A DNA stretch of 64,000 bases, taken from contig OY762492.1 of NCBI GenBank assembly GCA_963665845.2, positions 1,920,001-1,984,000 of the forward strand. Direction: 5' to 3'. The notes under the pieces are model-generated. The model worked only from the letters and a program-made list of their open reading frames with translations, made no database searches and had not been told where the DNA came from. The position numbers and the translations under genes were made by a program. This DNA comes from Candidatus Poribacteria bacterium (GTDB lineage Bacteria; Poribacteria; WGA-4E; GCA-2687025). Numbering within the stretch: the stretch's first letter is position 1; every line of letters starts with the position of its first letter. Positions 14,467 through 53,157 of this stretch are shown piece by piece.

Positions 14467-14495
14467 ATGGTAGTTTGAATCGGCGCATAAGTCAA
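14467..14495 (-). promoter_or_regulatory. sigma70-type promoter of rpmH-tkt
   Basis: TTGACT-N17-TACCAT on the minus strand. Confidence 0.7.
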
Positions 14496-14506
14496 GCCGC
14501 ATCTCG

Positions 14507-14530
14507 AAGCTTGCCCTTAAAGTTGGGACA
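14507..14530. repeat. Solo degenerate family A terminal repeat
   Basis: AAGCTTGCCCTTAAAGTTGGGACA matches the GACCT-N9-AGTTGGGACAT ends found elsewhere. Confidence 0.6.
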
Positions 14531-14575
14531 ACTCTGATAATGACGAGGAGCTGGGCGGAGGCGTCAAGCGAATCG

Positions 14576-16387
14576 TTAGGCGCGGAACAGGTCGCCCATG
14601 CGTTTGCCGAGTATCTTTGCCGCGACGAGCAGGCTCGCCGCCAGCAGCCCCATCGCAAAGACGCCCATCGCGCTCGCCACATACGGGCCGTCGCCCAGCC
14701 GCGTCGAGAGGCGGTAGATCACCTTCGTGATCGGATCGAAGCCGGAGCGCAGACCGGCGATGATCAAGCTGTCGGACACCTCCAGCATGGCGAATGAGAA
14801 CGCGAGTATGGCGCCCGCAATCAGGTTCGCTGTCACCAGCGGCATCGTGATTTTCCAGAGCGTCCGCATCGGGCTGGCGCCGAGGTTCTGCGACGCCTCC
14901 TCCAATGTAACGCTGGTCTGCTCAAAGCCCGCATACGCCGAACGCATCATATACGGCAGGCGGCGCACCGCGTAGGCGATGATGAGCAGCCAAGACGGGT
15001 TCACGCGCGGGTTCATGAACCCAAAAATCGCCTCCTCTCGGAACGGACCGACGCCGAAACTGCCGACATAACCGAACGCGATGACGATGCCCGGCAGCGC
15101 GAGCGGAAGCATGGCGGTCGCGTCCAGCAGGTTGCGGAACGGGATGCTGCGCCGCGTCAACAGCCACGCCAACGCGACGCCGAGAATCAGGTCGACAGCG
15201 GTGCTGGCGACCGAGTATTTGAAGCTGTTTTGAACGCTCAAAAACCCTTCCGACTGTCCGCCCTCATCCGTTGCGAAGGCGGCTTTGTAATGATCGCCGG
15301 TGAAGTTGCGCGGAAGAATGCTGCCTTTCCACTCGATCTCCTCATAAAGCGAACCTGACCAGGTGCCGGCTTCGGCGGCGGAGGTGAGACCGACGCTGAT
15401 ATGCGGAAGCGTCGCAATGAAGGTGATGCCGAGTATGGCGCTGTAGATGAGCGGAATCTGCCAGCCGCGCGCCGGGCGTTCGCGTGAGCCGGTGTGTCCG
15501 CGCGGAAGCCCCGCTCTCGATTTGGAGCCTGTCAGCTTTTTTGCCAGATAAAAGAACGCGACGGTCAGGACGATCACAATCACCACCAGGGCGTAGGCGC
15601 TCTGCGAGGTCGCCATCTCCTTGCTCGCGTCAAAGATTCGAACGGCGACGACGTCTCTGTAATCGAACATGAGCGGCGTTCCGAGATCGGTGAACGACCA
15701 GATGAAGACGAGGATGGCGCCGGCAAAATATCCAGGCATCATGAGCGGCAGCGTGATCGTGCGAAAGAGGGTGAATTTGTCCGCGCCGAGGTTGCGCCCC
15801 GCGTCTTCCAGCGTCGGATCGACGTTCGACATGGAGGCGGCTACGTTTAAGTACATGATCGGGTATAGATGAAGCGTGCCGAGAAAGACGACGCCCCAGA
15901 ATTTGCTGGTCTCGCTTCCGCCGAACCAGTCGATGGCGGTTGACCAGTCCATCAGCCCCATTTTGATGAGGATCATGTTGACGGAGCCGAACTCCGAGAA
16001 CAGCTGCTGCACGCCGACCGCGCCGACAAACGGCGGCATGATCAGCGGCACCAGCAGGACGCCCTGGGCGATGCTTTTGCCGGGGAACGACCAGCGCGTC
16101 ATGAGGCGCGCGAGCGGAAGGCTGATGAGCGTCGTCGCCGCGGTGGTCGCGAGGGCGAGCAGAACGCTGTTGACAATCTCCCGCGTTTCCTGCTGGTCAA
16201 GCAGAAAGAAGCCGACGTTCAGGCTTCCGCCCAAGAAAAACGCCTCGCGCAGAATATACCCGATCGGATAAACCAGAAAAAGCAGGAAGAAAAGAACGAC
16301 GCTGACCAGAAGCGCCAGCGTCGGCGTTGTCAAGCCGCGCTGGCGCAGCCATCGTTCCCATCGGCGTTGTTGAAGCGGCTCTTTCAC
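14576..16387 (-). CDS. Fe3+/thiamine-type ABC transporter permease (two permease domains)
   Basis: Two EAA loops (LEDAGRNLGA, LEEASQNLGA) and many TM segments. Confidence 0.9.
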   Translation of the reverse strand: MKEPLQQRRWERWLRQRGLTTPTLALLVSVVLFFLLFLVYPIGYILREAFFLGGSLNVGFFLLDQQETREIVNSVLLALATTAATTLISLPLARLMTRWSFPGKSIAQGVLLVPLIMPPFVGAVGVQQLFSEFGSVNMILIKMGLMDWSTAIDWFGGSETSKFWGVVFLGTLHLYPIMYLNVAASMSNVDPTLEDAGRNLGADKFTLFRTITLPLMMPGYFAGAILVFIWSFTDLGTPLMFDYRDVVAVRIFDASKEMATSQSAYALVVIVIVLTVAFFYLAKKLTGSKSRAGLPRGHTGSRERPARGWQIPLIYSAILGITFIATLPHISVGLTSAAEAGTWSGSLYEEIEWKGSILPRNFTGDHYKAAFATDEGGQSEGFLSVQNSFKYSVASTAVDLILGVALAWLLTRRSIPFRNLLDATAMLPLALPGIVIAFGYVGSFGVGPFREEAIFGFMNPRVNPSWLLIIAYAVRRLPYMMRSAYAGFEQTSVTLEEASQNLGASPMRTLWKITMPLVTANLIAGAILAFSFAMLEVSDSLIIAGLRSGFDPITKVIYRLSTRLGDGPYVASAMGVFAMGLLAASLLVAAKILGKRMGDLFRA

Positions 16388-16409
16388 CGCGGCTCCCGAT
16401 TCGCGTTCA

Positions 16410-17759
16410 TCATGGCGTCCTTCTGTTGAGCCGCTTTGCCGCGTTGTATTTGTCGCCGGCGAATTCGCGCCATTCCGAGACGGTACGCTTGCGCGTCAAG
16501 GCGTAGTCGGGGTCGTTCCATGACGTGGCAAGCTCCGCCGCTTCCTCTTCGGTGATGGGCATTTCGCCCAGTTTGAGCCGCGCCGTCTGCGCCCCTTTGC
16601 CGACCGCCTTCCAGCTTGAGGTCAGGTCTTTGTGCGCGTCGATGATGAGAGCGCCGAACAGATCGTTCACCAGCGTCCAGCGCGCGCCGCCGACATCCGG
16701 GTCGTATTCGATGGCGTTCTGAATTTCAAACGGGTTGCCCTTCACGACGGCTCGGCCGTCCGCCTCGTCGTACAGCTTCGGCAGAACGCTCAATCGGGCA
16801 AGCGTTTCCTTGCGCGGACCTTCAGGGTCGCCCTTCGGCAGTATCAGCAGCTTTTGCCCTTCCGGCGAGAGGCAATGCTCCACAAACAGCTTTGCCAGCT
16901 CCATATTCGGCGCGCCTTTCAGGATCGCGATCGGGTCGGGGTTGATGACGGAGAGTCCGTCCGGCATGACATAGGTCAGCTTGTCTTCCCCTGCTTTGGC
17001 GATCTGGGCGTAGGCGTAAAAGTCGATGACCGGACCGTAAAAGACGCTGCCGCGGGCGACTTCGCCTGGCACATCGCTGGCGCCTTCGGTGAATTGTTTC
17101 ACATTGCCGCCGATTTCATGAAGTATCTGCCAGCCGCGTTTCCATCCGTACGCCTGCAAGATGATTTCGTACACCATATGGGCGCTTCCGCTGTTGCGCG
17201 GGTCGGCGGCGGCGATGCGCCCTATCAGGCGCGGGTCGGTCATATCCTCCCATGTGGCGATGGTCGGCAGCTTGAACCGCTTCACCATCAGATTGTTATA
17301 CATCATGCCGAAGCCGGAGAGAGCGACGCCGTACCACCGCCCTTTTTCGTCATAAACAGGGACGCCGGCGATCTTTTCTCCGATCCGCTCCAACTGCTCT
17401 TTAGGAAGAACATGCGGCTCAAAAAGCCCCTTTTCAGCAAATTCGATGTAGGAGTCGACGCCGCCGCCGAAGAACAGGTCGACGTTGATGCTGTCCGGCG
17501 ACCGCTGAAATTCGGACTGAATGAAACGCTTGATGTTGGAGGTGCCGCCCTGGTCAAGCCATTCGATCTTGACGGAGCGGTTATGCGTCTCGCTCATCCA
17601 TGCGGCGAAGCTGCTGGTGAACTCGTCCAGCATCGCTTCTGGGTGGGGCGAAACGCCCCGCAAGGTTTCTTGGGCGTTTGCGGAGAGCAGGGCGCCGGCA
17701 AAGAGCGCCAGCAGAACGGCGGAGCGAAAAGGTCTATGCATGGAAGCGTCTTTCCTCAT
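16410..17759 (-). CDS. ABC transporter substrate-binding protein (AfuA/Fe3+-like)
   Basis: Signal peptide, DLFFGGG, ADPRNSGS, INPDPIAILKGAPN. The true start may be the second Met. Confidence 0.88.
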   Translation of the reverse strand: MRKDASMHRPFRSAVLLALFAGALLSANAQETLRGVSPHPEAMLDEFTSSFAAWMSETHNRSVKIEWLDQGGTSNIKRFIQSEFQRSPDSINVDLFFGGGVDSYIEFAEKGLFEPHVLPKEQLERIGEKIAGVPVYDEKGRWYGVALSGFGMMYNNLMVKRFKLPTIATWEDMTDPRLIGRIAAADPRNSGSAHMVYEIILQAYGWKRGWQILHEIGGNVKQFTEGASDVPGEVARGSVFYGPVIDFYAYAQIAKAGEDKLTYVMPDGLSVINPDPIAILKGAPNMELAKLFVEHCLSPEGQKLLILPKGDPEGPRKETLARLSVLPKLYDEADGRAVVKGNPFEIQNAIEYDPDVGGARWTLVNDLFGALIIDAHKDLTSSWKAVGKGAQTARLKLGEMPITEEEAAELATSWNDPDYALTRKRTVSEWREFAGDKYNAAKRLNRRTP

Positions 17760-17908
17760 TGAACGGCGGGGCGTATTCGAAAGATGAGAGACGGGTTGAG
17801 AATCAGGTACAGCAGCGCCGCGGCGATGACAAGGTACACGATGGCGCGTATGGTCGCTCTTTTGGCGGCTCGCTGCCGTTCTTCAGGCGTTTTTTGATGT
17901 TGCAGCAT
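17756..17908 (-). CDS. Small single-TM protein (50 aa), absent from the ORF track
   Basis: MLQHQKTPEERQRAAKRATIRAIVYLVIAAALYLILNPSLIFRIRPAVQ. AGAGG lies upstream and the stop overlaps the next ATG (ATGA). Confidence 0.55.
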   Translation of the reverse strand: MLQHQKTPEERQRAAKRATIRAIVYLVIAAALLYLILNPSLIFRIRPAVQ

Positions 17909-17973
17909 GCGCTTGCCTCTTGCGTTTGCGGCGGCGTTGCGGCGGCGTTGCGGTGAAACGCGCGCCTGCGTTT

Positions 17974-18002
17974 ATTGTAGCCGTTTTTTGAACGGGGGGC
18001 AA
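17974..18002 (-). promoter_or_regulatory. sigma70-type promoter of the ABC operon
   Basis: TTGCCC-N17-TACAAT. Confidence 0.6.
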
Positions 18003-18013
18003 ACGGACGCTCC

Positions 18014-18563
18014 GACCTCATGCTGAAAGTTGGGACAGGCTGAACGACCAAAGCCTTTATCGATGGAAAAACGCGCCGCCAACCGGATCGTCATTCCCGC
18101 GTAAGCGGGAATCCAGAGGCGCCGCAGAAAACGTCCGCACTCACCCAATTGTCCGGCGGCACAAATCGTTCCCCGCTTCCGCGAGGACATGCATTCCCGC
18201 CCTTGCGGTTAAACGTGCGGGAATCTTAGCCGCCGTTGTCGTCTGAACTAGGATTGCCAAGATTGAAAAGATTGCCAGGAGAATTCCTGCAGACCGCTGT
18301 CTTGGCAATCTTAGCAATCCTTCAATCCTAGTTCAAAACCGACGCCAACCCGCGCGCTAAAACCCCCCTAGCCCCCCTTTTCAAGGGGGAATCGGACGCG
18401 CCGCGCCGCGAATATCCCTGTATGGGAGTACTACCCTCCGACCTCATGCTGAAAGTTGGGACAGGCTGAACGACCAAAGCCTTTATCGATGGAAAAACGC
18501 GCCGCCAACCGGATCGCCCCCCGCTTCCGCATGCCGACATGTCTCAACTTAAGACGTGAGATC
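18014..18563 (+). mobile_element. Mosaic of MITE-like modules: family A left part, palindrome C (18244-18335), hairpin plus family B right end, and a second family A copy (18440-18563)
   Basis: About 75-bp direct repeat at 18014 and 18440; TGAACTAGGATTG...CAATCCTAGTTCA palindrome; terminal ATGTCTCAACTTAAGACGTGAGATC. Confidence 0.8.
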
Positions 18564-18574
18564 AGTCCGCTCCC

Positions 18575-18603
18575 TTGAACGCTGCGGGCGGTTAGCGTAT
18601 CAT
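18575..18603 (+). promoter_or_regulatory. sigma70-type promoter of the FAH operon
   Basis: TTGAAC-N17-TATCAT. Confidence 0.65.
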
Positions 18604-18647
18604 AGGCTTAGCCCGCACATCTCATCAGGCGGAAAGGCCGTTCGGAT

Positions 18648-19601
18648 ATGAAACTGTTGAGCTACCATGAACCGGGGCTAGGCGCCCGCATCGGCGTCCT
18701 GACGCGCGACAACGCTGTCATCGACATCTCGACCGACGAAGCGCCCGGCCTCCTAGAGCTGCTGCAGATCTGCGCAGAGGAGCGCGTCAGCCTAAACGTT
18801 CTTGCCGCCGAGATGCAAGAGCGCGCCGCGAACGCCAGAGCGCGCCCCGCGCCATGGGAATCGGAGGAGGCGACGCTGTACGACGCGCTCAACAACCCGC
18901 CGCATCCCGACAGCCGGCATCTGCTGCCGCCGATTCAAGCGCCCGAAGTGTGGGGCTGCGGCGTTACCTACAAGCGCAGCTCCGATATGCGCGACGACGA
19001 CGCCGAAACGGACATCTATTCGCGCGTCTACCATGCCGACCGCCCCGAGATATTTTTCAAGGCGACGGCGCGGAGCGTTGCGGGGCATCTGGGGAAGATC
19101 GGAATACGGCGCGATTCCAAACTCACCGCCGCGGAACCTGAACTGGCGCTGGTTCTCGGCGCCGACGGAAACATCGCCGGGTACACGCTCTGCAACGACG
19201 TCTCGGCGTGGGACATTGAACGGGACAATCCGCTCTATTTGCCCCAGTCTAAAACGTATAACGGGTGCTGCGCGCTGGGGCCGGTTTTCGTTACGCCCGG
19301 CGAAATCGACGACCCGTACGACCTTGAGATTGTCTGCTCGGCGCGAAGAGGGGATGAGGAGCTGTGGAGCGGAAACGTCAACACCAGCCAGATCAACTGG
19401 AAATTTGAACGGCTGATCGAATATCTGTTGAGAGACAACGACTGCCCCGTCGGAACCGTGGTCGCCACCGGAACCGGCATCATCGCCCCGAACGACATAC
19501 CGCTCCAGCATGGCGATATTGTCGACATCCATTGCGAACCGATCGGGACGCTCTCCAACCCCGCCGAGCAATTCAGCGATGAAACGGACTCGCATGCCTA
19601 A
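18648..19601 (+). CDS. Fumarylacetoacetate hydrolase family protein (2-keto-3-deoxy-pentonate dehydratase-like)
   Basis: EVWGCGVTY.RS, RPEIFFKA, EPEL, NDVSAWDIE..NPLYLPQSK, TGTG. Confidence 0.87.
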   Translation: MKLLSYHEPGLGARIGVLTRDNAVIDISTDEAPGLLELLQICAEERVSLNVLAAEMQERAANARARPAPWESEEATLYDALNNPPHPDSRHLLPPIQAPEVWGCGVTYKRSSDMRDDDAETDIYSRVYHADRPEIFFKATARSVAGHLGKIGIRRDSKLTAAEPELALVLGADGNIAGYTLCNDVSAWDIERDNPLYLPQSKTYNGCCALGPVFVTPGEIDDPYDLEIVCSARRGDEELWSGNVNTSQINWKFERLIEYLLRDNDCPVGTVVATGTGIIAPNDIPLQHGDIVDIHCEPIGTLSNPAEQFSDETDSHA

Positions 19602-21021
19602 ACGCTTTTTCACCTATAAAACGCTTGAAAGCCTGCAAGAAGAGATCGATCGGCTCAACGCGCCTGTCCGTCTTGAAACCGACCTGGAGGCATGTTTTGA
19701 GCCGCTTCCGATACGGCATCGTACCGCCGGAAGCCGCCTCGCCGTTCACCCGATGGAGGGCTGCGACGGAACCGCGGACGGCAAACCGGGCGAATTGACC
19801 ATACGGCGCTGGGAGCGTTTCGGAGCGGGCGGAGCCAAACTGATCTGGGGAGAAGCGACCGCCGTATCGGAGGAGTCCAGGGCGAACAAGCGGCAGCTGC
19901 TCATCAACGACGCGAACCTGTCGGCGCTGGAAGCGATGCTCGTCAAAACGCGGAAGGCGCACCGAGATGTTTTTGGCGCGGACGGCGACCTGCTCGTTGG
20001 GCTTCAGTTGACTCACTCAGGGCGGTACTCCTTTAAAAAGCCGCTCATCGCGCAGCGCGATCCAGACGTGGACGCCGTGACGAGAGGCGTCGCCGACTCT
20101 GAAACCTATCCGATACTGACCGACGAGGAGCTTAAAACGGCGGCTGATCAGATCGTCCATGCGGCGATGATGGCGGCAAAGATCGGCTTCGATTTTGTGG
20201 ACATCAAGCAGTGCCATCGGTATCTGTTGTCAGAGCTGCTGGCGGCGCGCCTGCGTCCAGGACCCTACGGCGGATCGTACGAAAACCGAACGCGCCTCGC
20301 CCGCGAGATCATTCAGCGCGTCAAGGAGAAGATTGGAAAGGATACGCTGATAGGAACGCGCCTGAATGTGTACGACGGCATTCCTTACGGAGAAAATCTG
20401 GACACGAAGGAGGGAGAGCCGAGGCGCGTCTCATCCCCGTATCTCGGCGGATGGGGCGTGGACGCGGAGAACCCGATTCAGCCCGACTATTCCGAGCCGA
20501 TCCGCTACGCTAAAGACCTTGCCGAATGGGGCGTTGACCTCATCAACGCGACGATGGGAAGCCCCTACTACAACCCGCATGTCGGCCGCCCGTTTGAGCG
20601 TCCGCCCATCGACGGCTACACGACGCCTGAACATCCGCTGTTCGGCGTCGTTCGGCACTTTGAGGCGGCGGAAGCGATTCAGCGCGCCGCGCCGAATGTC
20701 CCTGTCATAGGGACCGGCTACAGCTGGCTTCAGCGGTTCTTTATCTATGCGGCGGAGGCGAATATCCGAGACGGGCGCGTCTCGGCGGTCGGCGTCGGGC
20801 GGGGCGGGCTGGCGTATCCCGACTTCGCCGTAGACGCGCGGCGGGACGGCGAGTTGAGCCGTCAAAAGTCATGCGTCGCCGTCAGCTACTGCACGGCTCT
20901 CATGCGCGGCAAGCACAACGAGCTGGGGCAATTCCCGGCGGGCTGCGTCCCGCGCGACAAGATCTACGCCGAAATCTACAAAACGATGCTGGCGACCGAT
21001 CCGTCCAAGGCGGACGGCTAA
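19594..21021 (+). CDS. NADH:flavin oxidoreductase (Old Yellow Enzyme family)
   Basis: HPMEGCDG, LQLTHSGR, DIKQCHRYLLSELL, YGGSYENRTR. Start at MPKRFF. Confidence 0.87.
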   Translation: MPKRFFTYKTLESLQEEIDRLNAPVRLETDLEACFEPLPIRHRTAGSRLAVHPMEGCDGTADGKPGELTIRRWERFGAGGAKLIWGEATAVSEESRANKRQLLINDANLSALEAMLVKTRKAHRDVFGADGDLLVGLQLTHSGRYSFKKPLIAQRDPDVDAVTRGVADSETYPILTDEELKTAADQIVHAAMMAAKIGFDFVDIKQCHRYLLSELLAARLRPGPYGGSYENRTRLAREIIQRVKEKIGKDTLIGTRLNVYDGIPYGENLDTKEGEPRRVSSPYLGGWGVDAENPIQPDYSEPIRYAKDLAEWGVDLINATMGSPYYNPHVGRPFERPPIDGYTTPEHPLFGVVRHFEAAEAIQRAAPNVPVIGTGYSWLQRFFIYAAEANIRDGRVSAVGVGRGGLAYPDFAVDARRDGELSRQKSCVAVSYCTALMRGKHNELGQFPAGCVPRDKIYAEIYKTMLATDPSKADG

Positions 21022-21203
21022 TCGCCTGGGCCGGCGACAGCGTATGCATAGACCGCGGCGACCGTCCCGACGATCATGAGCGTGAACCATGCGACGAGCG
21101 GCATGCCCGGTCCCCAGACCGTCACATACGCCATCGCAGAAAAGATGAGCGCGAAGAAAAAGACGCCGTAGATGATCAGTACCGTTTTGACTTTAGTCGT
21201 CAT
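21018..21203 (-). CDS. Small two-TM membrane protein
   Basis: 61 aa with two hydrophobic segments. GGAG RBS and a TTGACA-N17-CATCAT promoter lie upstream. Confidence 0.65.
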   Translation of the reverse strand: MTTKVKTVLIIYGVFFFALIFSAMAYVTVWGPGMPLVAWFTLMIVGTVAAVYAYAVAGPGD

Positions 21204-21278
21204 GGAAACTCCGTAATTCAGCGATCCGCTTTGCTTGTATGATGCGCCTATTCCGCCGCTGTGTCAACATAAACTGCT

Positions 21279-21442
21279 GACCTCGCGCCGAAAGTTGGGA
21301 CATTTGAACCGACGATCGCTCTATTCATGGGAAAAAGGCGCCGCTAACCAAGCCGTCATTCCCGCTTAAGCGGGAATCTAGAGGCGGCACAGAAACCGTC
21401 CGCGTTCGCCCGCCGACATGTCCCAACTAAAGACTCAAGGTC
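21279..21442 (+). mobile_element. Complete family A MITE-like element (164 bp)
   Basis: Imperfect TIRs GACCTCGCGCCGAAAGTTGGGACAT and ATGTCCCAACTAAAGACTCAAGGTC, with an internal GTCATTCCCGCTTAAGCGGGAATC palindrome. No ORF. Confidence 0.85.
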
Positions 21443-21453
21443 AGCTGAACTGG

Positions 21454-21482
21454 TTGACATTTTGGATTTGTTCGTTTATGTT
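21454..21482 (+). promoter_or_regulatory. sigma70-type promoter of the tRNA pair
   Basis: TTGACA-N17-TATGTT, ending 9 nt before the tRNA. Confidence 0.75.
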
Positions 21483-21491
21483 TAAGTCGGC

Positions 21492-21567
21492 GGGGCTGTA
21501 GCTCAGCGGTCAGAGCCTCCGGCTCATAACCGGCAGGTCCCAGGTTCGAATCCTGGCGGCCCCACCA
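21492..21567 (+). tRNA. tRNA with CAT anticodon (probably Ile2, otherwise Met)
   Basis: GGGGCTG/CGGCCCC acceptor stem, CCGG-CTCATAA-CCGG anticodon arm, GGTTCGAATCC T-loop, encoded CCA. Confidence 0.93.
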
Positions 21568-21574
21568 GCGGAAC

Positions 21575-21649
21575 GGGGCGCTAGCTCAGGGGTAGAGCGC
21601 TATCTTCACACGGTAGATGCCGCTGGTTCAAATCCAGCGCGCCCCACCA
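21575..21649 (+). tRNA. tRNA-Val(CAC)
   Basis: GGGGCGC/GCGCCCC acceptor stem, CTATC-TTCACAC-GGTAG anticodon arm, GGTTCAAATCC T-loop, CCA. Confidence 0.95.
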
Positions 21650-21680
21650 TTTCCCGCTGTAGAACTTGAACGGAATCGTC

Positions 21681-22409: not shown

Positions 22410-22433
22410 ACCGCGTTGTAGAAGGAGAGCCGC

Positions 22434-26082: not shown

Positions 26083-26084
26083 GG

Positions 26085-34428: not shown

Positions 34429-34647
34429 TCGTCTCTCTCCGTCTTGCGGGCGGCTCCTTCGATACGTTTATAGTATAACGCATGGCGCCATGTTCGCCAT
34501 CATGTTTTCATTGCGGCATGCGAGTCAAGAAGGAACGGGAGTCCAGAGTCCCGACAGAAACCGTCCGCGTCATCGCTCGGATAGTTGAAGCGGAGAGGCG
34601 GCGCCCGGGAGGGAAGGCGGAGAAGGAGGCTCCTCTCCGCCCGCCCG

Positions 34648-38921: not shown

Positions 38922-38934
38922 GCGGAACCTAACA

Positions 38935-39350
38935 GACCTCATGTTAAAAGTTGAGACATTTGAACCGACGATCGCTTTATTCATGGGAAAAAGGCTCCGC
39001 CAACCAGGCCGTCATTCCCGCGCAAGCGGGAATCCAGAGGCGCCGCCGAAACCGTCTGCTGTCTGAACTAGGATTGCCAAGATTGAAAAGATTGCCAAGA
39101 GGATTCCCGTAAGCCGCGCTCTTGGCAATCTTAATCGTCCTTCCATCCCAGTTCAAACAAGCGCAACCCGCGCGCCAAACCCCCTAGCCCCTTACGCCTA
39201 AAGTTGGGACATTTGAACCAACGATCGCTCTATTCATAGGAAAAGGCTCCGCCAACCAGACCGTCATTCCCGCGTAAGCGGGAATCCAGAGGCGCCGCAG
39301 AAGACGTCTGCGTTCGCCCGCCGGCATGTCCTAACTAAAGACGTAAGGTC
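38935..39350 (+). mobile_element. Mosaic: family A left part, palindrome C (39064-39155), partial hairpin module, second family A copy
   Basis: Two AAAGTTGRGACATTTGAACC starts, two ATTCCC-N8-GGGAAT cores, right end CTAACTAAAGACGTAAGGTC. Confidence 0.82.
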
Positions 39351-39536
39351 TATTGAAGCGGTTGATGGGCGACAAGGAGCCGCTGTTTAGGCATATCGCC
39401 AAACGGCAAGGCGGTGAACTGCCCATGCGCCCCGTTTCGTTGTTTCCGTAGGCCGTCCGCCGTTAATCCTCAATGAGTCCCAAATCCAGCTCAATGATTT
39501 TGAAATCGGGATGATCTTTTTCTCCCCATCGAATCG

Positions 39537-40416: not shown

Positions 40417-40445
40417 ATTATAATACGGACTTTCTAACAGCGCAA
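40417..40445 (-). promoter_or_regulatory. sigma70-type promoter
   Basis: TTGCGC-N17-TATAAT. Confidence 0.7.
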
Positions 40446-40457
40446 CCTTGCAACTCT

Positions 40458-40547
40458 GACCTCACGTCTTAAGTTGGGACATGTCGGCATGCGAACGCGG
40501 ACGTCTTCTGCGGCGTCTCTAGATTCCCGCTTACGCGGAAATGACGG
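40458..40547 (-). mobile_element. Family A right half, inverted
   Basis: GACCTCACGTCTTAAGTTGGGACAT...AGATTCCCGCTTACGCGGAAATGAC. Confidence 0.8.
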
Positions 40548-40774
40548 AGAGGGAAAGCGGAAATGACGGAGAGGGAAAGCGGAAATGACGGAGAGGGAAA
40601 GCGGAAATGACGGAGAGGGAAAGCGGAAATGACGGAGAGGGAAAGCGGAAATGACGGAGAGGGAAAGCGGAAATGACGGAGAGGGAAAGCGGAAATGACG
40701 GAGAGGGAAAGCGGAAATGACGGAGAGGGAAAGCGGAAATGACGGAGAGGGAAAGCGGAAATGACGGAGAGGGA
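40535..40774. repeat. 22-bp tandem repeat, about 11 copies
   Basis: Perfect units of GCGGAAATGACGGAGAGGGAAA with no spacers. Confidence 0.97.
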
Positions 40775-40812
40775 GGGGCGCGGCAGGCTAAGGGCGGACG
40801 GCGTCCGCCGCT

Positions 40813-43345: not shown

Positions 43346-43366
43346 ATGGGTCTCCTTACGTGTTGC

Positions 43367-44629: not shown

Positions 44630-44722
44630 AGCATACAGCGACGCCGCCTAGTTTAGCATAGATTGGAGCAGAATGCGTTTCTATGTTCATGGCGCGGGCG
44701 GAAGGGCGGGAAGGCGGGGTTT

Positions 44723-44794
44723 GCCCGCCCGTTATTCTTCGGCGGGGGCGTTCTCCTTCGTCGGCGCGCCTGCCCCAACTAAAGCCGCAAGGTC
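44723..44794. pseudogene. Gene 3'-end remnant abutting a solo family A right terminal repeat
   Basis: 44723-44766 matches 34639-34682 at 40 of 44 positions. It is followed by TGCCCCAACTAAAGCCGCAAGGTC. Confidence 0.65.
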
Positions 44795-44866
44795 AAACGC
44801 GAAGGACTCGCGCTCTGTCCAAAAGAGATATACAATAACAAAAAAAACGGCACTGGAGCGAAAGCG

Positions 44867-45625: not shown

Positions 45626-45697
45626 GCAGGCGGCGGAAGCGATGTAGGTTGACTTTAAGCCGCATGGCGCGCTACATAATTATTTGGAGGAAATGAT

Positions 45698-46984
45698 ATG
45701 AAAGAAGCGTTTGAAGGGTTCGCCTACCGCAACGGTGAACTGTATTGCGACGACGCGCCGGTCGCCGAGATCTGCGAGCGGTACGGCACCCCGCTTTACA
45801 TCTATAGCTACGGGGCGTTGACCGGTCGGTTTCGACGGCTGCGGGAGGCGTTTTCAAGTGTGGACGCGACGATCTGTTACTCGGTCAAATCGAACTCGAA
45901 CATCGCGGTCATACGGGCGTTGGCCCGGGAGGGCGCGGGGGCGGACATCGTTTCTGTCGGCGAACTGCGCCGCGCCTTGACCGCCGGCGTTGACCCGCAA
46001 AAGATCGTCTTTGCGGGCGTCGGCAAAACGGAGGCGGAGATCGCGGAGGCGCTGGAGGCCGACATCTTGGCGTTCGCGGTCGAGTCGGCGCCGGAAGCGT
46101 ATGCGGTCGGTAGAGTCGCCGAGAAAGCGGGCAAGCGCGCTCCCATCACGCTGCGCATCAACCCCGATGTTGACGCGAAGACGCATAAGCACACGACAAC
46201 AGGCAAAAAAGGCGTCAAATTCGGCGTGGACATCGACGCCGCGCCGCGTCTCTTCAAGGAGCTGGAAAACCATGCGCATCTGGACATATGCGGGGCGCAT
46301 ATTCATCTCGGCTCGCCTGTCACGACGATTGAGGCGTATGAAGCGGCGATGGAGAAGGCGGTCGCGCTGGTTGCGGAGCTGCGGGAAAACGGGTCGCGCT
46401 CGCTCCGCCTGCTGAATATGGGCGGCGGGCTGCCGATTGTCTATAAAGACGAAAAGGAGCTGGACCTGAACGCATACGCGCGGGTCATGATGGACGGCGC
46501 GGAGAAGACAGGCTGCCGCCTGGCGCTGGAGCCGGGGCGGTATATCAGCGGCAATTCCGGCATACTGTGCGCCCGCGTACTTTACCGAAAAGAGACCGAT
46601 CATAAAACATTCATCATCGTCGACGGCGCGATGAACGACCTGATACGCCCCTCGTTTTACGGCAGCTGGCATGAGATGCGCCCAGTGAAGCGGCGCGGAC
46701 GGGAGATCGAAACGGTGGACGTCGTCGGTCCGATCTGCGAATCGGGCGATTTTTTGGCGAAAGACCGCTCCCTGCCGCGCATGGAGGAGGGGGAAACGCT
46801 TGCCGTTTTCAGCGCAGGCGCATACGGATTCGCCATGTCCTCCAACTACAATTCCAGACCGAGAGCGGCTGAAGCGATGACCATCGGCGGCGAGGCGCTG
46901 CTCATACGCGAGCGCGAAACGCTGGAAGATTTGACAAGAGGCGAACGAATCCCTGAAATCTTACTAGACAAGAAAGAGAGCTGA
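45698..46984 (+). CDS. lysA: Diaminopimelate decarboxylase
   Basis: YGTPLYIY, YSVKSN, KFG, HLGS, EPGR, GPICESGD, MSSNYN. GGAGG RBS. Confidence 0.96.
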   Translation: MKEAFEGFAYRNGELYCDDAPVAEICERYGTPLYIYSYGALTGRFRRLREAFSSVDATICYSVKSNSNIAVIRALAREGAGADIVSVGELRRALTAGVDPQKIVFAGVGKTEAEIAEALEADILAFAVESAPEAYAVGRVAEKAGKRAPITLRINPDVDAKTHKHTTTGKKGVKFGVDIDAAPRLFKELENHAHLDICGAHIHLGSPVTTIEAYEAAMEKAVALVAELRENGSRSLRLLNMGGGLPIVYKDEKELDLNAYARVMMDGAEKTGCRLALEPGRYISGNSGILCARVLYRKETDHKTFIIVDGAMNDLIRPSFYGSWHEMRPVKRRGREIETVDVVGPICESGDFLAKDRSLPRMEEGETLAVFSAGAYGFAMSSNYNSRPRAAEAMTIGGEALLIRERETLEDLTRGERIPEILLDKKES

Positions 46985-46985
46985 T

Positions 46986-47813
46986 ATGTCCATTTCATTC
47001 ACAAAGATGAGCGGCGCCGGCAACGATTTTGTCGTCATCGACAACCGCGCCGGTCAAATCGAAGCGTCCGCCGAATTTGTGGCGAAGGTATGTTCCCGCC
47101 GGGTGTCAGTCGGCGCGGACGGCCTCCTGCTCGTTGAATCGCCGGAGGATCCGTCGGAAGCCGATTTTCGAATGCGCTACTTCAACGCGGATGGCGGCGA
47201 AGCGGAAACCTGCGGCAACGGCGCCCGATGCATCGCCCGCTTCGCTTTTTTGAACGGCGTTGCCGACAAAACGATGCATTTTGAAACGCTTGCAGGGGTC
47301 TATTCGGCGGAGATTGCCGGCGGCAATGTGCTTCTTGGACTCGGCGATCCGCGCGACATACGGCTCGATTTTCCGTTGGAACTGGAGGAGGGCGAAGCGG
47401 TCGCCTCGTTTGCAAACACAGGCGTTCCGCATGCGGTGCGCTTCATGGACGAGATCGATTCCATCGATGTGCCGGCGGCGGGGCGCGAAATGCGTTACCA
47501 TGAAGCGTTCGGACAGGCGGGCGCCAACGCCAACTTTGTCCGCGTCGAAGACGAACAGACGCTGCGAACCCGAACCTATGAGCGCGGCGTCGAAGATGAA
47601 ACCTTAGCATGCGGAACGGGAGCTGTCGCCTCGGCGGTGACAGCCGCTCTGCAGGACAAGGTACGCCCGCCCGTCACGGTGCGCGTCAAAGGCGGATTCG
47701 ATCTGATCGTCCATTTTGAACTGAACGGCGGCGCGGCAAGCAATATCCGCTTGGAAGGCGACGCCCGCGTCGTTTTCACCGGCGAACTAAGCAAGGAAGC
47801 CTGGAGCTACTGA
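46986..47813 (+). CDS. dapF: Diaminopimelate epimerase
   Basis: FTKMSGAGNDF, CGNGARC, TGVPH, ERGVEDETLACGTG. Confidence 0.96.
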   Translation: MSISFTKMSGAGNDFVVIDNRAGQIEASAEFVAKVCSRRVSVGADGLLLVESPEDPSEADFRMRYFNADGGEAETCGNGARCIARFAFLNGVADKTMHFETLAGVYSAEIAGGNVLLGLGDPRDIRLDFPLELEEGEAVASFANTGVPHAVRFMDEIDSIDVPAAGREMRYHEAFGQAGANANFVRVEDEQTLRTRTYERGVEDETLACGTGAVASAVTAALQDKVRPPVTVRVKGGFDLIVHFELNGGAASNIRLEGDARVVFTGELSKEAWSY

Positions 47814-48523
47814 TGCGCTCATCGAACATGTCCGCAGCCCGCCAAGCGATGTCCCCCGTCTTGACAACGTCGATGGAGGATTACATCAAAACGATCTACA
47901 AGGCGCAGCGGCGGCATGGCAGGGCGACAACGGTTCTGATTGCGGATCGAATGCAGGTCTCCGCGGCGTCCGTAACCAAAATGCTCAAACGGTTGGCGCG
48001 GTTCGATCTGGCGCTTTATGAGCCGTATCAGGGGGCGGAGCTGACCGAGACGGGGCGATGCATCGCGCTGGAAATCATCCGCCATCATCGGCTTCTGGAG
48101 CTATACCTGGCGGAGCGGATGGGGTATTCGTGGGACGAGGTGGACGCCGAAGCGGAGGCGCTGGAGCATGTGATCTCGGAGGCGTTTGAGGCGCGGATCG
48201 ACGCCCTGCTCGGCTATCCCGACACCGACCCGCATGGGCATCCAATACCGTCCCGCGAGGGGCATATACGCGACGACGCGCTTTACACGCCGTTAGACCA
48301 GATCGAAGCGGGCGAACAGGCGGTCGTCCGCCGCGTCTCCGACCGCGATTCATGCCGTCTGCGCCGTTTTGGCGATCTGGGGCTGTTTCCCGGCAGGAGC
48401 GTTCATGTGCTGGCGTTTGAAGCGGGGCGGCTGCAGATGCGCGTCGCCGGCAGCGCGCAAGAGATGGAGAGCGCCCTGGCGGAAGGCGTCTATGTGGAGC
48501 GCGCGGCGCCGAAACCTGTATGA
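47813..48523 (+). CDS. DtxR/MntR family metal-dependent regulator with FeoA-like domain
   Basis: EDYIKTIY, RHHRLLELYL, EAEALEH, DPHGHPIP. Confidence 0.92.
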   Translation: MRSSNMSAARQAMSPVLTTSMEDYIKTIYKAQRRHGRATTVLIADRMQVSAASVTKMLKRLARFDLALYEPYQGAELTETGRCIALEIIRHHRLLELYLAERMGYSWDEVDAEAEALEHVISEAFEARIDALLGYPDTDPHGHPIPSREGHIRDDALYTPLDQIEAGEQAVVRRVSDRDSCRLRRFGDLGLFPGRSVHVLAFEAGRLQMRVAGSAQEMESALAEGVYVERAAPKPV

Positions 48524-48533
48524 ACGGAAACGG

Positions 48534-49403
48534 ATGAGCGGATCGAACGTCCATATTGAGAACGAGGATTGCCGCGTCGGGATGAAGCGTCTTGCCGACA
48601 ATTCCGTCTCGCTCATTTTGACCGACCCGCCCTATTTCCTAGACGGCATGGGCGCGGACTGGGACGCGGCAAAGTTGAAGCGGCGCGTCAAAAAAGGGGT
48701 CGTCGGCTCCTTGCCGGCGGGTATGAAGTTTTCGGCGCGGCAGGGGCTTGACCTGCAGCGTTTCTTGACGCCGGTCGCCCGCGAGTGGATGCGCGTCATT
48801 CGCCCGGGCGGCTTCTGCCTCGTGTTTAGCCAGAACCGCTTGGCGCATCGGGCGGCGGTGGCGCTGGAGGAGGCTGGTTTTGAAATACGCGACATGCTGC
48901 TCTGGCGGTATGAGGGGCAGGCGAAGGCGTTTTCACAGGAGCATTGGGTGCGGAAGCGGAAACTGCCGGACGCCGAAAAGAAGCGGCTGATACGCAAACT
49001 GGGCGGACGCAAAACGGCGCAGCTGAAACCGCAGGGAGAGATGATCGTTCTAGGGCAGGCGCCGGTTGAGGGGACGCTGGTCGACAACTGGGACCGCTGG
49101 GAGACGGGCTTGATCGATGTCAGCTCGCCGCTCATCCATCCCGATCAGTTTCCAGGAACGGTCATACAGGTCGACAAGCCGAAGGAGCGGCATGGGCATA
49201 TGACGCCGAAGCCTGTCGCGCTGCTTCAACATCTCATACGCATCTTTTCGGCGCCGGGGTCGCTGGTACTGGACGCATTCGCTGGGTCGGGTTCTACGGG
49301 TGTGGCGGCGAAGCGGGAAGGGCGCGCGTTTATTGGTTATGAGATCGAGGCGGAAACGGCCGCGGGCGCGCAGGCGCGAATCAGGAGTACATTAAATGCA
49401 TGA
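48534..49403 (+). CDS. Site-specific DNA methyltransferase (N6/N4, beta-type motif order)
   Basis: TDPPY precedes HMTPKP and LDAFAGSGST. Start at MSGSNV. Confidence 0.9.
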   Translation: MSGSNVHIENEDCRVGMKRLADNSVSLILTDPPYFLDGMGADWDAAKLKRRVKKGVVGSLPAGMKFSARQGLDLQRFLTPVAREWMRVIRPGGFCLVFSQNRLAHRAAVALEEAGFEIRDMLLWRYEGQAKAFSQEHWVRKRKLPDAEKKRLIRKLGGRKTAQLKPQGEMIVLGQAPVEGTLVDNWDRWETGLIDVSSPLIHPDQFPGTVIQVDKPKERHGHMTPKPVALLQHLIRIFSAPGSLVLDAFAGSGSTGVAAKREGRAFIGYEIEAETAAGAQARIRSTLNA

Positions 49404-50265
49404 GTTTCATTCCGACCTGTATGAACAGCTGCGCACAAAGCGCAACGAATTGGCAAGGGAGAAGAGAGTCCGTCCATATTTTATCCTTGCAAACAGGTCT
49501 TTGGAGGAAATGGCAACCGATTTGCCGCAAACTCAAGAAGAATTTGCAAATATCTGGGGGATTGGTCCCATTACAATCCAATATGCCGGTGTTTTTTTAC
49601 CGATCATCCGTCAATACTGCAAAGAGCATGCGCTGCGCGCTGATGCTCCGATTGAGTTTCAGTACGCGCTTTTTGAGCTGCTTCGACTGAGGCGCATAGA
49701 AGTCGCCAGACGAGACAATACAAACGATCTGCAAGTCTTTCGGGACAGAACGCTGGAAGATTTAGCGACTCATCTGCCGAAGACCAGAGAAGAATTTAGG
49801 CAAATTTGGGGCGTTGATGAAGGGCGGACAGCGCGGTACGCCGACGACTTCCTTCCGATCATCCGTCAATACTGCGGGGAAACGAACGAGCCGCCTCTTC
49901 AGCAGGTCGCCGAATCGTCCGTCGCATTCGATCAAAATCCTACGGCTATTATCTCTGTCGAGGAGGAACAGTACGCAGACCCAAACGAATACGCCCCTAG
50001 GCTGTACGAACTGCTAAGGGATGAACGCGATCGGATTCCCGAGAGGGTCAATGCGTTTCAGGACAGAACATTGAAGCAGATGGCAGCTTATCTCCCGCAA
50101 ACAGAAAGCGAATTTTTAAATATCGATAGGATCGGATCCTTGTTAACGGAAAGGTACGCAGACAGGTTTTTGCCGATCATACGCGATTTTTGCAGAGAAA
50201 ACGGCATTTCATACGACCGCATCGAACCCCGCCAGCGAGAATTGCTAGACTGGCTCCGGAGATAA
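49396..50265 (+). CDS. Stand-alone protein with three HRDC domains
   Basis: Three repeats of LYE.LR..R...R.L..MA..LP.T..EF..I.G......Y...FLPIIR.YC. Confidence 0.85.
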   Translation: MHEFHSDLYEQLRTKRNELAREKRVRPYFILANRSLEEMATDLPQTQEEFANIWGIGPITIQYAGVFLPIIRQYCKEHALRADAPIEFQYALFELLRLRRIEVARRDNTNDLQVFRDRTLEDLATHLPKTREEFRQIWGVDEGRTARYADDFLPIIRQYCGETNEPPLQQVAESSVAFDQNPTAIISVEEEQYADPNEYAPRLYELLRDERDRIPERVNAFQDRTLKQMAAYLPQTESEFLNIDRIGSLLTERYADRFLPIIRDFCRENGISYDRIEPRQRELLDWLRR

Positions 50266-50320
50266 ACGCATGCCCCGCCGCAGGCGCGCAGGCGCGAATA
50301 GAGGGCGCGACGCTGGCAGA

Positions 50321-50461
50321 TAGTACGCTCATGCGATGTGATTCATTTTGCGTGACGGCCCGCCGATCCAGACCGTCATTCCCGCGTAAGCGGGAATCTA
50401 GAGGCGCCGCAGAAACCGTCCGCGCCCGCCCGCTGTCATGCCCAACTAACGACGTAAGGTC
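50321..50461 (+). mobile_element. Chimeric element: family B left end joined to family A right half
   Basis: TAGTACGCTCATGCGATG (compare 57554), then the ATTCCC-N8-GGGAAT core, then CCCAACTAACGACGTAAGGTC. Confidence 0.75.
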
Positions 50462-50473
50462 AGAGGTCAAACG

Positions 50474-50506
50474 TTGTTTGAAATTTTTGACGGTCTATAC
50501 TATAGT
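50474..50506 (+). promoter_or_regulatory. sigma70-type promoter(s)
   Basis: TTGAAA-N17-TATAGT (50478-50506), overlapping TTGTTT-N16-TATACT (50474-50501). Confidence 0.6.
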
Positions 50507-50549
50507 TGTTTTAACTAAAAAAATGGGCATACATGCAACGGAGAGCAAC

Positions 50550-51368
50550 ATGCGCAAAATCGTCTACAGCGTCTGCGCCGCGCTCATGCTCGCGGCAACA
50601 TGCGCCGAGCAAAAAGCGCAGGCGAACGCTGGACAGATGGCTGTCTTTTACGACAATGTGGGATGGATCGCCGCCGGCAAAGCGAAAGAGGTCGGAGACG
50701 CGATCATCGCAGGCGTCAAATCGTTCCAAAACCCGAAAGCGTACGACCTGGACGGCGTCGCCGAATGGGTTGAACAAAACACAGGGGACGGCGACGTCGA
50801 TTGCCTCGTGATGTTCGGGTACACGCCCCAGACCATCTACACGCCTGGGAATGCCGATCCGGACGGATCCCTGGTCGAAGAGTTTATCGACGACGGCAAC
50901 TTCGTCATGAACACCGCCGACTACATCTTCTATGTTACGCAAGGCGGAGGGGCGAACGCGGTGCAAGGACTTCAGAACATCACCGACTCCACCTTCGACA
51001 TGTGGACGGACGGCAACGCCATCAAGCCGACCGCCGACGGAGAAAAATACACCCCCAGCCTCGGCAACTTCACCTCCAACAGGTCCTTCAAACCAGGTCA
51101 AATCGAGGCGGACGACAATTGGGAAATCGAGGTTGCTTTCGGGTCGGGACCGCTGGGGATTGACCCCGCTATCATCCGCCACACAGAAACCGGCGGGCGC
51201 GTCGGCATCTGGATGCAGGTCGTCAACGACGGCTTGAACCGCGCCGACGTCGCGCTTGACATCTTCAACAACTGGGTTCCCGAAACGATAGAGCCGCAGT
51301 CGGTCGATCCGATCGGCAAATCGGCTGCGTTGTGGGGCAACCTGAAGCGCCAGCGCGCCGCAAGATAA
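50550..51368 (+). CDS. Secreted acidic hypothetical protein with VDPIGK..WG tail (paralog 1)
   Basis: Signal peptide MRKIVYSV, TGDGDVD, NTADYIFYV, C-terminal SVDPIGKSAALWGNLK. Confidence 0.85.
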   Translation: MRKIVYSVCAALMLAATCAEQKAQANAGQMAVFYDNVGWIAAGKAKEVGDAIIAGVKSFQNPKAYDLDGVAEWVEQNTGDGDVDCLVMFGYTPQTIYTPGNADPDGSLVEEFIDDGNFVMNTADYIFYVTQGGGANAVQGLQNITDSTFDMWTDGNAIKPTADGEKYTPSLGNFTSNRSFKPGQIEADDNWEIEVAFGSGPLGIDPAIIRHTETGGRVGIWMQVVNDGLNRADVALDIFNNWVPETIEPQSVDPIGKSAALWGNLKRQRAAR

Positions 51369-51399
51369 AACGCGCGCAACAACTAAGGAGAAAGCGCCA

Positions 51400-52197
51400 A
51401 TGCGCAATGCAATGAACGCTGTCATCGCAGCAATGATTCTCGTGTGCGGAACGGCCGCCGCCCAGTCGCTTGGGCAGATCGCCGTCTTCCACGAAAAGGT
51501 GGGCTGGATCGGCCAAGCCGCCGCTGACGACGCCGCCAATGAAATCCTCAGCAACACAACCTCGACCGACATCATGGCGGTCAATCTGGACGAATCCGCC
51601 AGCTTCCTTGCCGACAGCACCGGCGACGGAGATGTCGATGTCTTCTTCACCTTCGGCTACCTGCCCGAAACCGTCTATGCGCCCGGCAACGCCGAGCCGG
51701 ACGACTCCATCATCGAAAAGTACATCGAGGACGGAAACCTGTACCTCAACACCGCCGACTACATCTTCTATGTGACCCTCGGCGGAGGAGCGAACGCGGT
51801 GGGCGGTCTCCAGAGCGTCACCGACTCCACCTTCGATATGTGGACGGACGGCAACGCTGTCTCTCCGACCGCCGACGGCAGCAAATATCTGCCCAGCTTG
51901 GAAGGTTTCCAGTCGAACCGCTCCTTCAAAAAGGCGCAGGTTGAAGGGGACGAGAACTGGGATTACGCTGTCGTCTTTGCGGAGGGACCGCTCGGCGAAG
52001 ATCCGGCGATCATCCAGCATGCGGACTACAAGGGCTTGGTCGGCATCGTCATGCAGGTCTCCAACGACAACCTGCCGCGCGGGGCGGTCGTCACGGAGCT
52101 GTTCAACAACTGGCTCCCGGACGCTTTCCCGACCACGTCGGTCGATCCGATCGGCAAAGCCGCTTCTCTTTGGGGCGGTTTGAAATCGGCGGAGTGA
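51400..52197 (+). CDS. Secreted acidic hypothetical protein with VDPIGK..WG tail (paralog 2)
   Basis: Colinear paralog of the upstream gene. TAAGGAG RBS; C-terminal SVDPIGKAASLWGGLK. Confidence 0.88.
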   Translation: MRNAMNAVIAAMILVCGTAAAQSLGQIAVFHEKVGWIGQAAADDAANEILSNTTSTDIMAVNLDESASFLADSTGDGDVDVFFTFGYLPETVYAPGNAEPDDSIIEKYIEDGNLYLNTADYIFYVTLGGGANAVGGLQSVTDSTFDMWTDGNAVSPTADGSKYLPSLEGFQSNRSFKKAQVEGDENWDYAVVFAEGPLGEDPAIIQHADYKGLVGIVMQVSNDNLPRGAVVTELFNNWLPDAFPTTSVDPIGKAASLWGGLKSAE

Positions 52198-52233
52198 TTC
52201 GTTGAACGCTGGAACAGGCCGCGCGGGGGATGC

Positions 52234-52608
52234 TCAACAGCACCCTTTGCGCGGTCTGATTCTTGCGATGACGCGGTAGGCCGCTTCGGCGAGCGGCGCC
52301 AAGACGGGCAGCTGAAGCAGCTGTCCAAGCCATCGCCGCCTCGGCAGCCGAGATAAGATGCGCCCCGCCGCCGCCGCGCCGCGGTATGTTTTTCCAAACT
52401 CCACCGCATGAATCGCGCGTCGCGCCTCTTCAGCCGACAGGGAGAGCCGCGCCAACGCCGCCTCGTCCTGAAGCGGTATGAAATGGACGGCGCCGTCTAT
52501 ATCCAAAGCTGACCAGCGCGCCGCCGCGCGTCGACACCATCCGCATTCGGCGTCGTACACTGCGACTAGGCGGCTCGCCGTTTTTGCTTTTTCAGCCTGT
52601 CTTTCCAT
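52234..52608 (-). CDS. DCC1/DUF393 family thiol-disulfide oxidoreductase
   Basis: VYDAECGWC (DxxCxxC), F.PLQ, AAYRVIARIR. Start at MERQAEK. Confidence 0.85.
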   Translation of the reverse strand: MERQAEKAKTASRLVAVYDAECGWCRRAAARWSALDIDGAVHFIPLQDEAALARLSLSAEEARRAIHAVEFGKTYRGAAAAGRILSRLPRRRWLGQLLQLPVLAPLAEAAYRVIARIRPRKGCC

Positions 52609-53157
52609 ATGTCTTTCTGGCGAACGCGGACGGTTTCTGCCGGGACTCTGGATTCCCGCTTGCGCGGGAATGACGAAGAGCGGCGCGCCGCCGCGCGTCG
52701 GCGCCATCCGCATTCGGCGTCGTACACTGCGACTAGGCGGTTTGCCGTTTTTGCTTTTTCAGCCTGTCTTTCCATATGTCTTTCTGGCGAACGCGGAAGG
52801 TTTCTGCCGGGACTCTGGATTCCCGCTTGCGCGGGAATGACGAAGAGGGGCGCGCCGCCGCGCGTCGACACCATCCGCATTCGGCGTCGTACACTGCGAC
52901 TAGGCGGCTTGCCATTTTTGTTTTTCAGTCTGTCTTTCCATACGCCGCGCTGTCAATACCTAAAGTCTGACCTTCTGTCTTTAGTTGGGACATTCCGCCT
53001 AGTGAACGCGGACGGTTTCTGCGACGCCTCTGGATTCCCGCTTGCGCGGGAATGACGAAGAGCGGCGCGCCGCCGCGCGTCGGCGCCATCCGCATTCGGC
53101 GTCGTACACCGCGGCTAAGCGGCGTGGCGCTTGTGTTTCGCCTGCCTGTCTTTCCAT
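52516..53157 (-). repeat. Array of four copies of the DCC1 gene 5' end separated by palindrome-containing element arms
   Basis: Units start at 52516, 52683, 52850 and 53065 (periods 167, 167, 215). The array includes a family A right half at 52969-53056. Confidence 0.92.

Follow-up and report, generated by a model that had tools for sequence, protein, structure and literature searches.

A MITE and its cognate IS4-type insertion sequence sit at a fixed distance upstream of host -35 boxes in a Candidatus Poribacteria genome

Results

A window of 64,000 nucleotides from a Candidatus Poribacteria bacterium (assembly GCA_963665845.2, contig OY762492.1, positions 1,920,001 to 1,984,000) contains scattered copies of a repeat that faces promoter-like sequences. 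The repeat is the end of a non-autonomous MITE (miniature inverted-repeat transposable element) of about 168 bp, which shares its 27-bp ends with a 1267-bp insertion sequence (IS) located outside the window. The copies in the window are listed in Table 1, with the -35 and -10 hexamers read outward from each end. The gene downstream of the first copy is rpmH, a label given in the original prediction and confirmed by a match to TIGR01030. The tRNAs that were placed downstream of the end at 21442 were also recovered, and these two tRNAs are the only Rfam matches.

Table 1. Element ends and MITE copies in the window, with the promoter hexamers that they face
Position	Strand	Feature	Facing sequences
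14505..14531	+	Decayed solo end	Outward (minus strand) TTGACT 14495-14490, TACCAT 14472-14467; upstream of rpmH, 14268-14417, minus strand
18012..18146	+	Left-type end and partial MITE	Outward TTGCCC 18002-17997, TACAAT 17 nt further
18438..18565	.	Internally deleted 128-bp element with both ends; target duplication absent	Right end faces TTGAAC 18575-18580, TATCAT 18598-18603
21277..21444	.	Full-length 168-bp MITE; no target duplication; REP-like palindrome at about 21355-21377	Promoters on both sides: TTGACA 21267-21262 with CATCAT; TTGACA 21454-21459, TATGTT 21477-21482, then tRNA-Met/tRNA-Val
38933..39059	+	Left-type end and partial MITE	Outward TTGACG 38921-38916, CATAAT 17 nt further
39186..39352	.	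Near-full-length MITE, left end decayed	On the right, TTGATG 39362-39367, lacking a -10 at spacer 16-18
40456..40547	+	Right MITE half	Outward TTGCGC 40445-40440, TATAAT 40422-40417
44770..44796	-	Decayed solo end	Outward TCGCGC 44808-44813, TACAAT 44831-44836
50373..50463	-	Right MITE half	Outward TTGTTT 50474-50479, TATACT at spacer 16
52967..53057	+	Right MITE half	Outward TTGACA 52956-52951; no -10 at spacer 16-18

The terminus of the element is CTGACCT-N9-AGTTGGGACAT; the CT that precedes GACCT is conserved at 85-90% among the genome copies. Eleven ends had been described in the original prediction. Their positions and their -35 and -10 hexamers were reproduced, as was the lack of a -10 at the ends at 39350 and 52969. 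The spacings reported there were 2 nt too long because the outer CT belongs to the terminus. Measured from the true end, the distance to the -35 is 9-11 nt.

The host genome (G000) is 3.98 Mb and about 90% complete, and ends were counted mostly on its contig C1. With up to 3 mismatches allowed, 464 ends were found in the genome and 2 in a shuffled genome. A total of 128 end pairs lie less than 700 bp apart, with sizes mostly of 166-169 or 188-190 bp and a palindrome like the repetitive extragenic palindromes (REPs) inside. The element is therefore short and present in many copies, has ends of about 27 bp in common with an autonomous IS, and is flanked by target duplications, as expected of a MITE. 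It folds as a long hairpin (z = -4.3) because of its inverted ends.

The spacing to the -35 holds throughout the genome. For the 462 ends on C1, a TTG started at 9 nt in 70, at 10 nt in 72 and at 11 nt in 30, and every other offset from 0 to 69 was found 1-19 times. A TTG lay 8-12 nt outward from 199 ends, compared with 35.4±5.2 (maximum 51) in 300 flank shuffles. When a TANNNT at a spacer of 16-18 was also required, 114 ends remained, compared with 1.2±1.2 (maximum 5) in the shuffles, and the spacer was 17 in 97 of the 114. As background, a TANNNT-type -10 follows 535 of 7001 (7.6%) intergenic TTG[AC] sequences distant from ends. The peak sought by comparing genome-wide distances with shuffled controls, a check proposed in the original prediction, is present at 9-11 nt from the true end. 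Within 600 nt of the 114 ends, the first crude gene call was in the sense direction for 96 and antisense for 11, and 7 had none. No targeting of alternative-sigma promoters was detected, since no non-TTG 4-mer was enriched at the ends except that of adjacent element ends.

Target duplications were analyzed on C1 in the 118 paired copies with a length of 120-260 bp. Of these, 52 are flanked by an exact duplication (5-9 bp, mostly 6-7 bp), 20 by one with a mismatch and 46 by none, compared with 0.75 exact duplications when flanks are paired at random. No consensus is visible in the duplicated bases. Among the 52 exactly duplicated copies, 36 have a TTG that starts exactly 3 nt past the duplication (the +3 rule), and any other offset was seen at most twice. 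The distance from the end to the TTG follows the length of the duplication: 5 bp gives 8 nt (2 copies), 6 gives 9 (16), 7 gives 10 (15), 8 gives 11 (2) and 9 gives 12 (2). The spread of 11-13 nt reported earlier is therefore the spread of duplication lengths. Four of the 16 duplicated copies without a TTG at +3 have a TANNNT exactly 17 nt past the hexamer in that place. The end facing the promoter was right-type in 22 cases, left-type in 13 and unclassified in 2.

A TTG on both sides was found in 1 of the 52 exactly duplicated copies and in 10 of the 46 without duplication. About 8 of these 10 would be expected from the 42% rate per side if halves were randomly re-paired. The suggestion that a transposase acts with both ends in one event is not supported by these counts. 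One insertion uses one promoter, and the two-sided cases look secondary. The copies lacking a duplication are probably later products of recombination or rearrangement among copies. Their flanks are slightly less often syntenic with a congeneric genome (G001) than those of duplicated copies (6/25 vs 11/26 scorable copies). Among 63 copies of 168 bp, the median identity to the nearest neighbor is 0.958 with a duplication and 0.914 without, so the copies without duplication are older. There are also eight back-to-back pairs of ends with spacers of 6-8 nt. In four of them the far end abuts repeated bases, 3 nt and a TTG, and therefore the same promoter was struck twice.

One explanation for this distribution is random insertion followed by purifying selection, which would spare only the copies just upstream of promoters. 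Insertions into genes or promoters would be purged, and 87% of the ends do lie outside crude gene calls. However, selection would tolerate any site upstream of a -35. When facing ends were counted from TTG[AC]-17-TANNNT sites, 95 were found in the five positions at 8-12 nt, 21 in the next 138 positions (13-150 nt) and 11 at 1-7 nt. Selection also leaves unexplained the constant of 3 (distance minus duplication length) and the spots struck twice. We therefore regard this explanation as scarcely credible. The genome has 887 such sites, about 544 above chance, of which about 95-114 already bear an end.

Whether the promoters belong to the host was examined by comparison with G001, for which 1.59 of about 3.6 Mb was compared. 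Of 118 promoter-flanked ends in the host genome, 70 were unmapped in G001, 3 fell in repeats, 4 had alignments that stopped short and 41 were scorable. The TTG is kept in place at 38 of the 41. At 29 of them no end was called within 25 nt, and at 12 there is an end at or near the same place. Two sites (C1:1814383 and 3817660) are cleanly empty in G001, where the duplicated bases occur once. The original prediction held that the promoters are host-derived, and it is borne out by the conserved -35 boxes and the empty orthologous promoters; the gap and the -35 are not carried by the element. In G001 alone, a TTG was found at +3 in 10 of 13 duplicated copies. At one bidirectional promoter region, the two genomes carry insertions that differ in place by 8 nt, and the -35 position found 3 nt away is not the same for the two. 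Within the window, the promoter at the rpmH copy is conserved, and the G001 end is 2 nt further out. The promoter facing the 128-bp element has no end called at its G001 counterpart. The full-length MITE, with promoters on both sides and no duplication, is one of the presumably rearranged copies: its flanks map to different G001 contigs, and the G001 tRNA promoter has no end.

The two genomes, about 89% identical in nucleotides, have an unusually shuffled gene order: 351 breaks of synteny were counted over the 1.59 Mb compared. Edges of synteny blocks are enriched near several intergenic repeat families. MITE ends were considered as a cause of rearrangement, as 139 of 702 break edges lie near them compared with 5% at random. 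No MITE-specific claim is made because syntenic gaps (85/518) and another repeat (258/702) are enriched too.

The transposase was found in the single-copy IS at C1:561322-562588, where MITE-type ends surround a transposase gene. This agrees with the expectation of an off-window transposase bounded by the same terminal inverted repeats. Four longer end pairs were inspected: one is this IS, one is an IS110 inside a MITE and two enclose ordinary genes. A genome search for DDE_Tnp_1 gave a single match, the protein encoded here (P0001). It matches PF01609 (E 2e-13) and, otherwise, only models of the DDE_Tnp_1 clan. All NCBIfam IS4 models fell below their cut-off, the best being NF033591 with 78 vs 152 bits. 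The YREK motif, Y-(2)-R-(3)-E-(6)-K, is present as Y259, R262, E266 and K273 and in the same form in the homologue P0122, and Y, R and K are invariant across two homologue alignments. The catalytic spacers are 80-81 (D-D) and 98 (D-E), the second being 2 short of the published range D(60-110)D(100-150)E. A profile of the transposase matched only Tn5 transposase chains in the PDB, weakly (E 0.5-0.9). We found 784 relatives of the transposase. Matches in the ESM Atlas were to DDE_Tnp_1 clusters only, and there was no match in annotated plasmids and phages. Judged by its sequence, the transposase is IS4-type and not Mutator-like. In the roughly 90% complete genome, there was no match to PF00872, for which the control matched in 6/14, or to PF06782, for which the search was weak, as its control matched nowhere. 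The kinship with TnGBS and ISLre2 elements drawn in the original prediction was therefore dropped for the enzyme, within the limits of the PF06782 search.

These results also bear on a second explanation, in which the end motif would be bound by a host regulator or would be a promoter module domesticated beside -35 boxes, as had been proposed. Many solo or half ends do persist at unrelated promoters, including those of rpmH and the tRNAs, and some are common to G001. However, a transposase gene lies between ends of the same kind, 52 of the 118 paired copies have exact duplications at their flanks, and no end was called at most orthologous promoters in G001. The copies with duplications are also the younger ones, which is opposed to an origin as a regulatory site. 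We consider this explanation very improbable, although single copies could have gained an effect on expression later.

The same rule was found in homologous IS from metagenomes (80 loci), the ends of which read CTGA-N12-AG(T/A)TCGGACA. The 65 two-ended homologues are 1169-1470 bp long, most of them 1169-1277 bp. With 118 distinct ends having 45 nt of flank, a TTG lay at 8-12 nt in 65 (shuffles 10.5±3.1) and a TTG plus a -10 in 46 (shuffles 0.9±0.9), in flanks of 17-67% GC. All seven distinct elements with a duplication have a TTG at +3. In a genome from the phylum of a Chloroflexota record (G144), an intact copy is followed by a 6-bp duplication, CCC, TTGACA, 17 nt and TATTAT. The promoter targeted there (L145:2672-2700) has GAAC-N4-GTTC in its spacer, which we take to resemble a LexA-type box. 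Two other genomes, G003 and G342, agree with the pattern of the host genome. The family is patchy, being present in 3/301 and 3/151 genomes of two phylum samples.

To describe what the element recognizes, occupancy was counted at intergenic sites. A -10 was defined as TANNNT at spacer 17, and its three fixed bases were scored. For TTG hexamers with at least 5/6 matches to TTGACA, 34/192 were occupied when the full TANNNT was present, 12/323 with two of the three bases and 17/1945 with 0-1 bases. With a -10 behind it, the occupancy of a good -35 is thus 20-fold higher. Non-TTG hexamers were occupied in 39/5269 cases with a full -10 and in 673/668788 with 0-1 bases. Because occupancy depends on both boxes, the target is a two-part promoter such as would be read by a sigma70-type holoenzyme.

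A third explanation is direct reading of the -35 hexamer or of local DNA shape by the transposase, without RNA polymerase; the correlation with the -10 would then come from the accessibility of promoter DNA. The element end CTGAC does resemble TTGAC, and two further observations favor this explanation and weigh against a pure holoenzyme model. Of 156 intergenic sites with a perfect TTGACA and at most one of the three -10 bases, 7 were occupied, compared with a background of 0.1%. Also, 14 ends abut a TTGAAA-containing repeat that carries CCCCTTGAAAAGGGG, none of them with a TANNNT. The -35 therefore has some weight alone. These TTGACA-only and TTGAAA-repeat targets may be weak promoters or may reflect some direct reading of the -35. 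Reading of the -35 alone does not account for the 20-fold gain from a -10 at a 17-bp spacer, nor for the higher occupancy of non-TTG hexamers with a full -10. Among the 263 ends without a TTG, TANNNT still peaks at offsets 32-34 (15, 13 and 10, vs 1-8 elsewhere). The -10 would also lie 26-31 bp past the fixed nick (see Discussion), beyond what we presume to be the reach of a Tn5-type target complex. We therefore consider this explanation unlikely.

Several other observations also count against targeting of promoters by this element. By the simple consensus, 187 of the 462 ends on C1 have no -35, -10 or adjacent end. The term intergenic rests on crude gene calls. A duplication is missing from 46 of 118 paired copies and from 48 of 55 two-ended metagenome IS, in the latter perhaps through misjoined assemblies. 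About 6 of the 29 end-free G001 sites hold decayed end-like bases when judged by eye. Finally, an A7 run in the transposase gene of the host genome puts the conserved C-terminal tail out of frame, so the present activity of this transposase is uncertain. The A run is one or two bases shorter in contigs of other runs. Several close homologues end or change frame at this run (L001:368). It is possibly a slippage site that would control production of the full-length transposase in this sub-clade. Of the 80 metagenome homologues, 9 showed no tail, and in 67 of the other 71 the frame is single. Intact homologues exist, with a transposase size of about 360-390 aa.

Other repeats lie beside the MITE. 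The REP-like palindrome, GTCATTCCCGC-N4-GCGGGAATC, occurs about 904 times with both strands counted, also outside the MITE (in the window at 7132-7177, 34536-34570 and 57609-57654). No RAYT/Y1 transposase for it was found in a genome search. An IS110-type element (PF01548 and PF02371) lies within the palindrome of one MITE copy (L002:274-1811; about 3073470-3075010 of C1). It has 7 near-full copies in the genome with 90-100% identity and may target the palindrome. The repeat family with CCCCTTGAAAAGGGG has 409 exact matches (in the window at 2406-2547, 7035-7240, 18358-18419 and 57659-57723). Its TTGAAA is -35-like, and several copies were struck by the MITE under the +3 rule. A third repeat, a 97-nt imperfect hairpin starting GTCTGAACTAGGATTGCCAAG, is found at 18241-18337 and 39061-39157, beside truncated MITE halves. 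A perfect 22-bp tandem array (40535-40800) lies directly within the half element starting at 40456, and 167-bp tandem units at 52450-53138, made of the inner MITE part and flank, adjoin the end at 52967. Two contigs of run X5 link one element end to another with 6-9 bases between them, either as stacked insertions like those in the host genome or as a circle or dimer junction.

Discussion

In the MITE and the IS alike, the target duplication stops 3 nt before a host -35, on its upstream side, and we think it likely that the elements were positioned there by promoter-bound sigma70-type holoenzyme. The guidance by RNA polymerase holoenzyme is inferred from the pattern of insertion sites. DDE transposases make 5' staggered cuts. 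With this chemistry, the fixed nick would be on the template strand between -39 and -38, taking the first T of TTGACA as -35. The nick on the other strand would slip between about -44 and -47, giving a duplication of variable length. The proximal UP subsite is placed at -45 to -37, where it adjoins the -35 box that sigma region 4 reads (PMC2613000). The duplicated bases (about -45 to -39) would then lie within this subsite, beside sigma region 4. The transpososome may dock on the upstream face of the bound holoenzyme, either by protein contact or by capture of bent DNA. Its place would resemble that of a transcription activator. An insertion of this kind would leave the -35, the -10 and the gene intact and displace only what lay further upstream, which may have allowed the element to reach hundreds of copies.

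A more specific form of this mechanism is a tentative proposal, with a chance that we put at somewhat less than even. A widespread IS4 subfamily would have a transposase that binds the upstream face of the sigma70-type holoenzyme (sigma region 4 or the alpha subunit's C-terminal domain), as an activator would. One strand-transfer site would be clamped 3 bp from the -35 and the other would slip.

Insertion near promoters is known from other elements. The TnGBS ICEs, ISLre2 (p-MULT 3) and the ISKra4 group (p-MULT 4) insert 15-17 bp upstream of sigmaA -35 boxes (PMC3942029). The same text regards insertion upstream of promoters as unusual for prokaryotic transposases and suggests that the RNA polymerase initiation complex is contacted (PMC3942029). 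Like these elements, ours lies at a fixed distance upstream of a housekeeping-sigma -35, and like the ISKra4 group, which has near-symmetric ends, it uses both orientations. It differs from them, as far as they are described there, in four respects. The transposase is of the IS4-type DDE_Tnp_1 rather than Mutator-like. The peak is 9-11 nt from the end, and offsets 15-17 are at background (6, 6 and 6 of 462). The duplication is variable with a fixed edge on the promoter side. The insertions are mostly borne by a MITE, with hundreds of ends per genome. The yeast Ty3 integrase (TFIIIB/TFIIIC) also inserts at a specific position beside an initiation complex with no target consensus (cited in PMC3942029). 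In contrast to our element, Ty3 is a eukaryotic retroelement at Pol III genes for which tethering is described in that text; for our element, tethering is a proposal.

According to the review of the IS4 family (PMC2266710), the element is like that family in its YREK motif, CT ends, size (1170-1280 bp, compared with 1200-1350 for the IS10 subgroup) and single open reading frame in most homologues. The duplication is mostly 6-7 bp and variable, compared with 9 for IS10, 8-9 for IS50 and 7-8 for ISPepr1 in the same pages (PMC2266710). The element was not placed in a named IS4 subgroup because of its duplication length, which differs from the 9 bp, roughly a turn of the helix, of IS10. In the main text of the review, the word "promoter" is absent (PMC2266710). 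Our literature search, the coverage of which left out most subscription journals and ISfinder, found no report of promoter targeting by IS4-type elements.

The precise habit of homing to promoters is real in a second transposase superfamily. For the Mutator-like elements, contact with RNA polymerase was proposed and not demonstrated in the text consulted (PMC3942029). Here, a Tn5-type enzyme keeps a rule exact to the base, at over 100 sites of a single genome and also in homologues. As one edge of the variable duplication is fixed, the anchored cut can be identified, which leads to a sharp structural prediction. With a small transposase and intact homologues, the question of tethering is directly testable. 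In an uncultured lineage the element labels promoters, and it might be used as a tool for promoter mapping or safe-harbour insertion. If the proposed binding to holoenzyme is true, promoter-tethered transposition would have had an independent origin in bacteria, and the footprints left by its MITE would locate the promoters of hosts from uncultured phyla with single-base precision.

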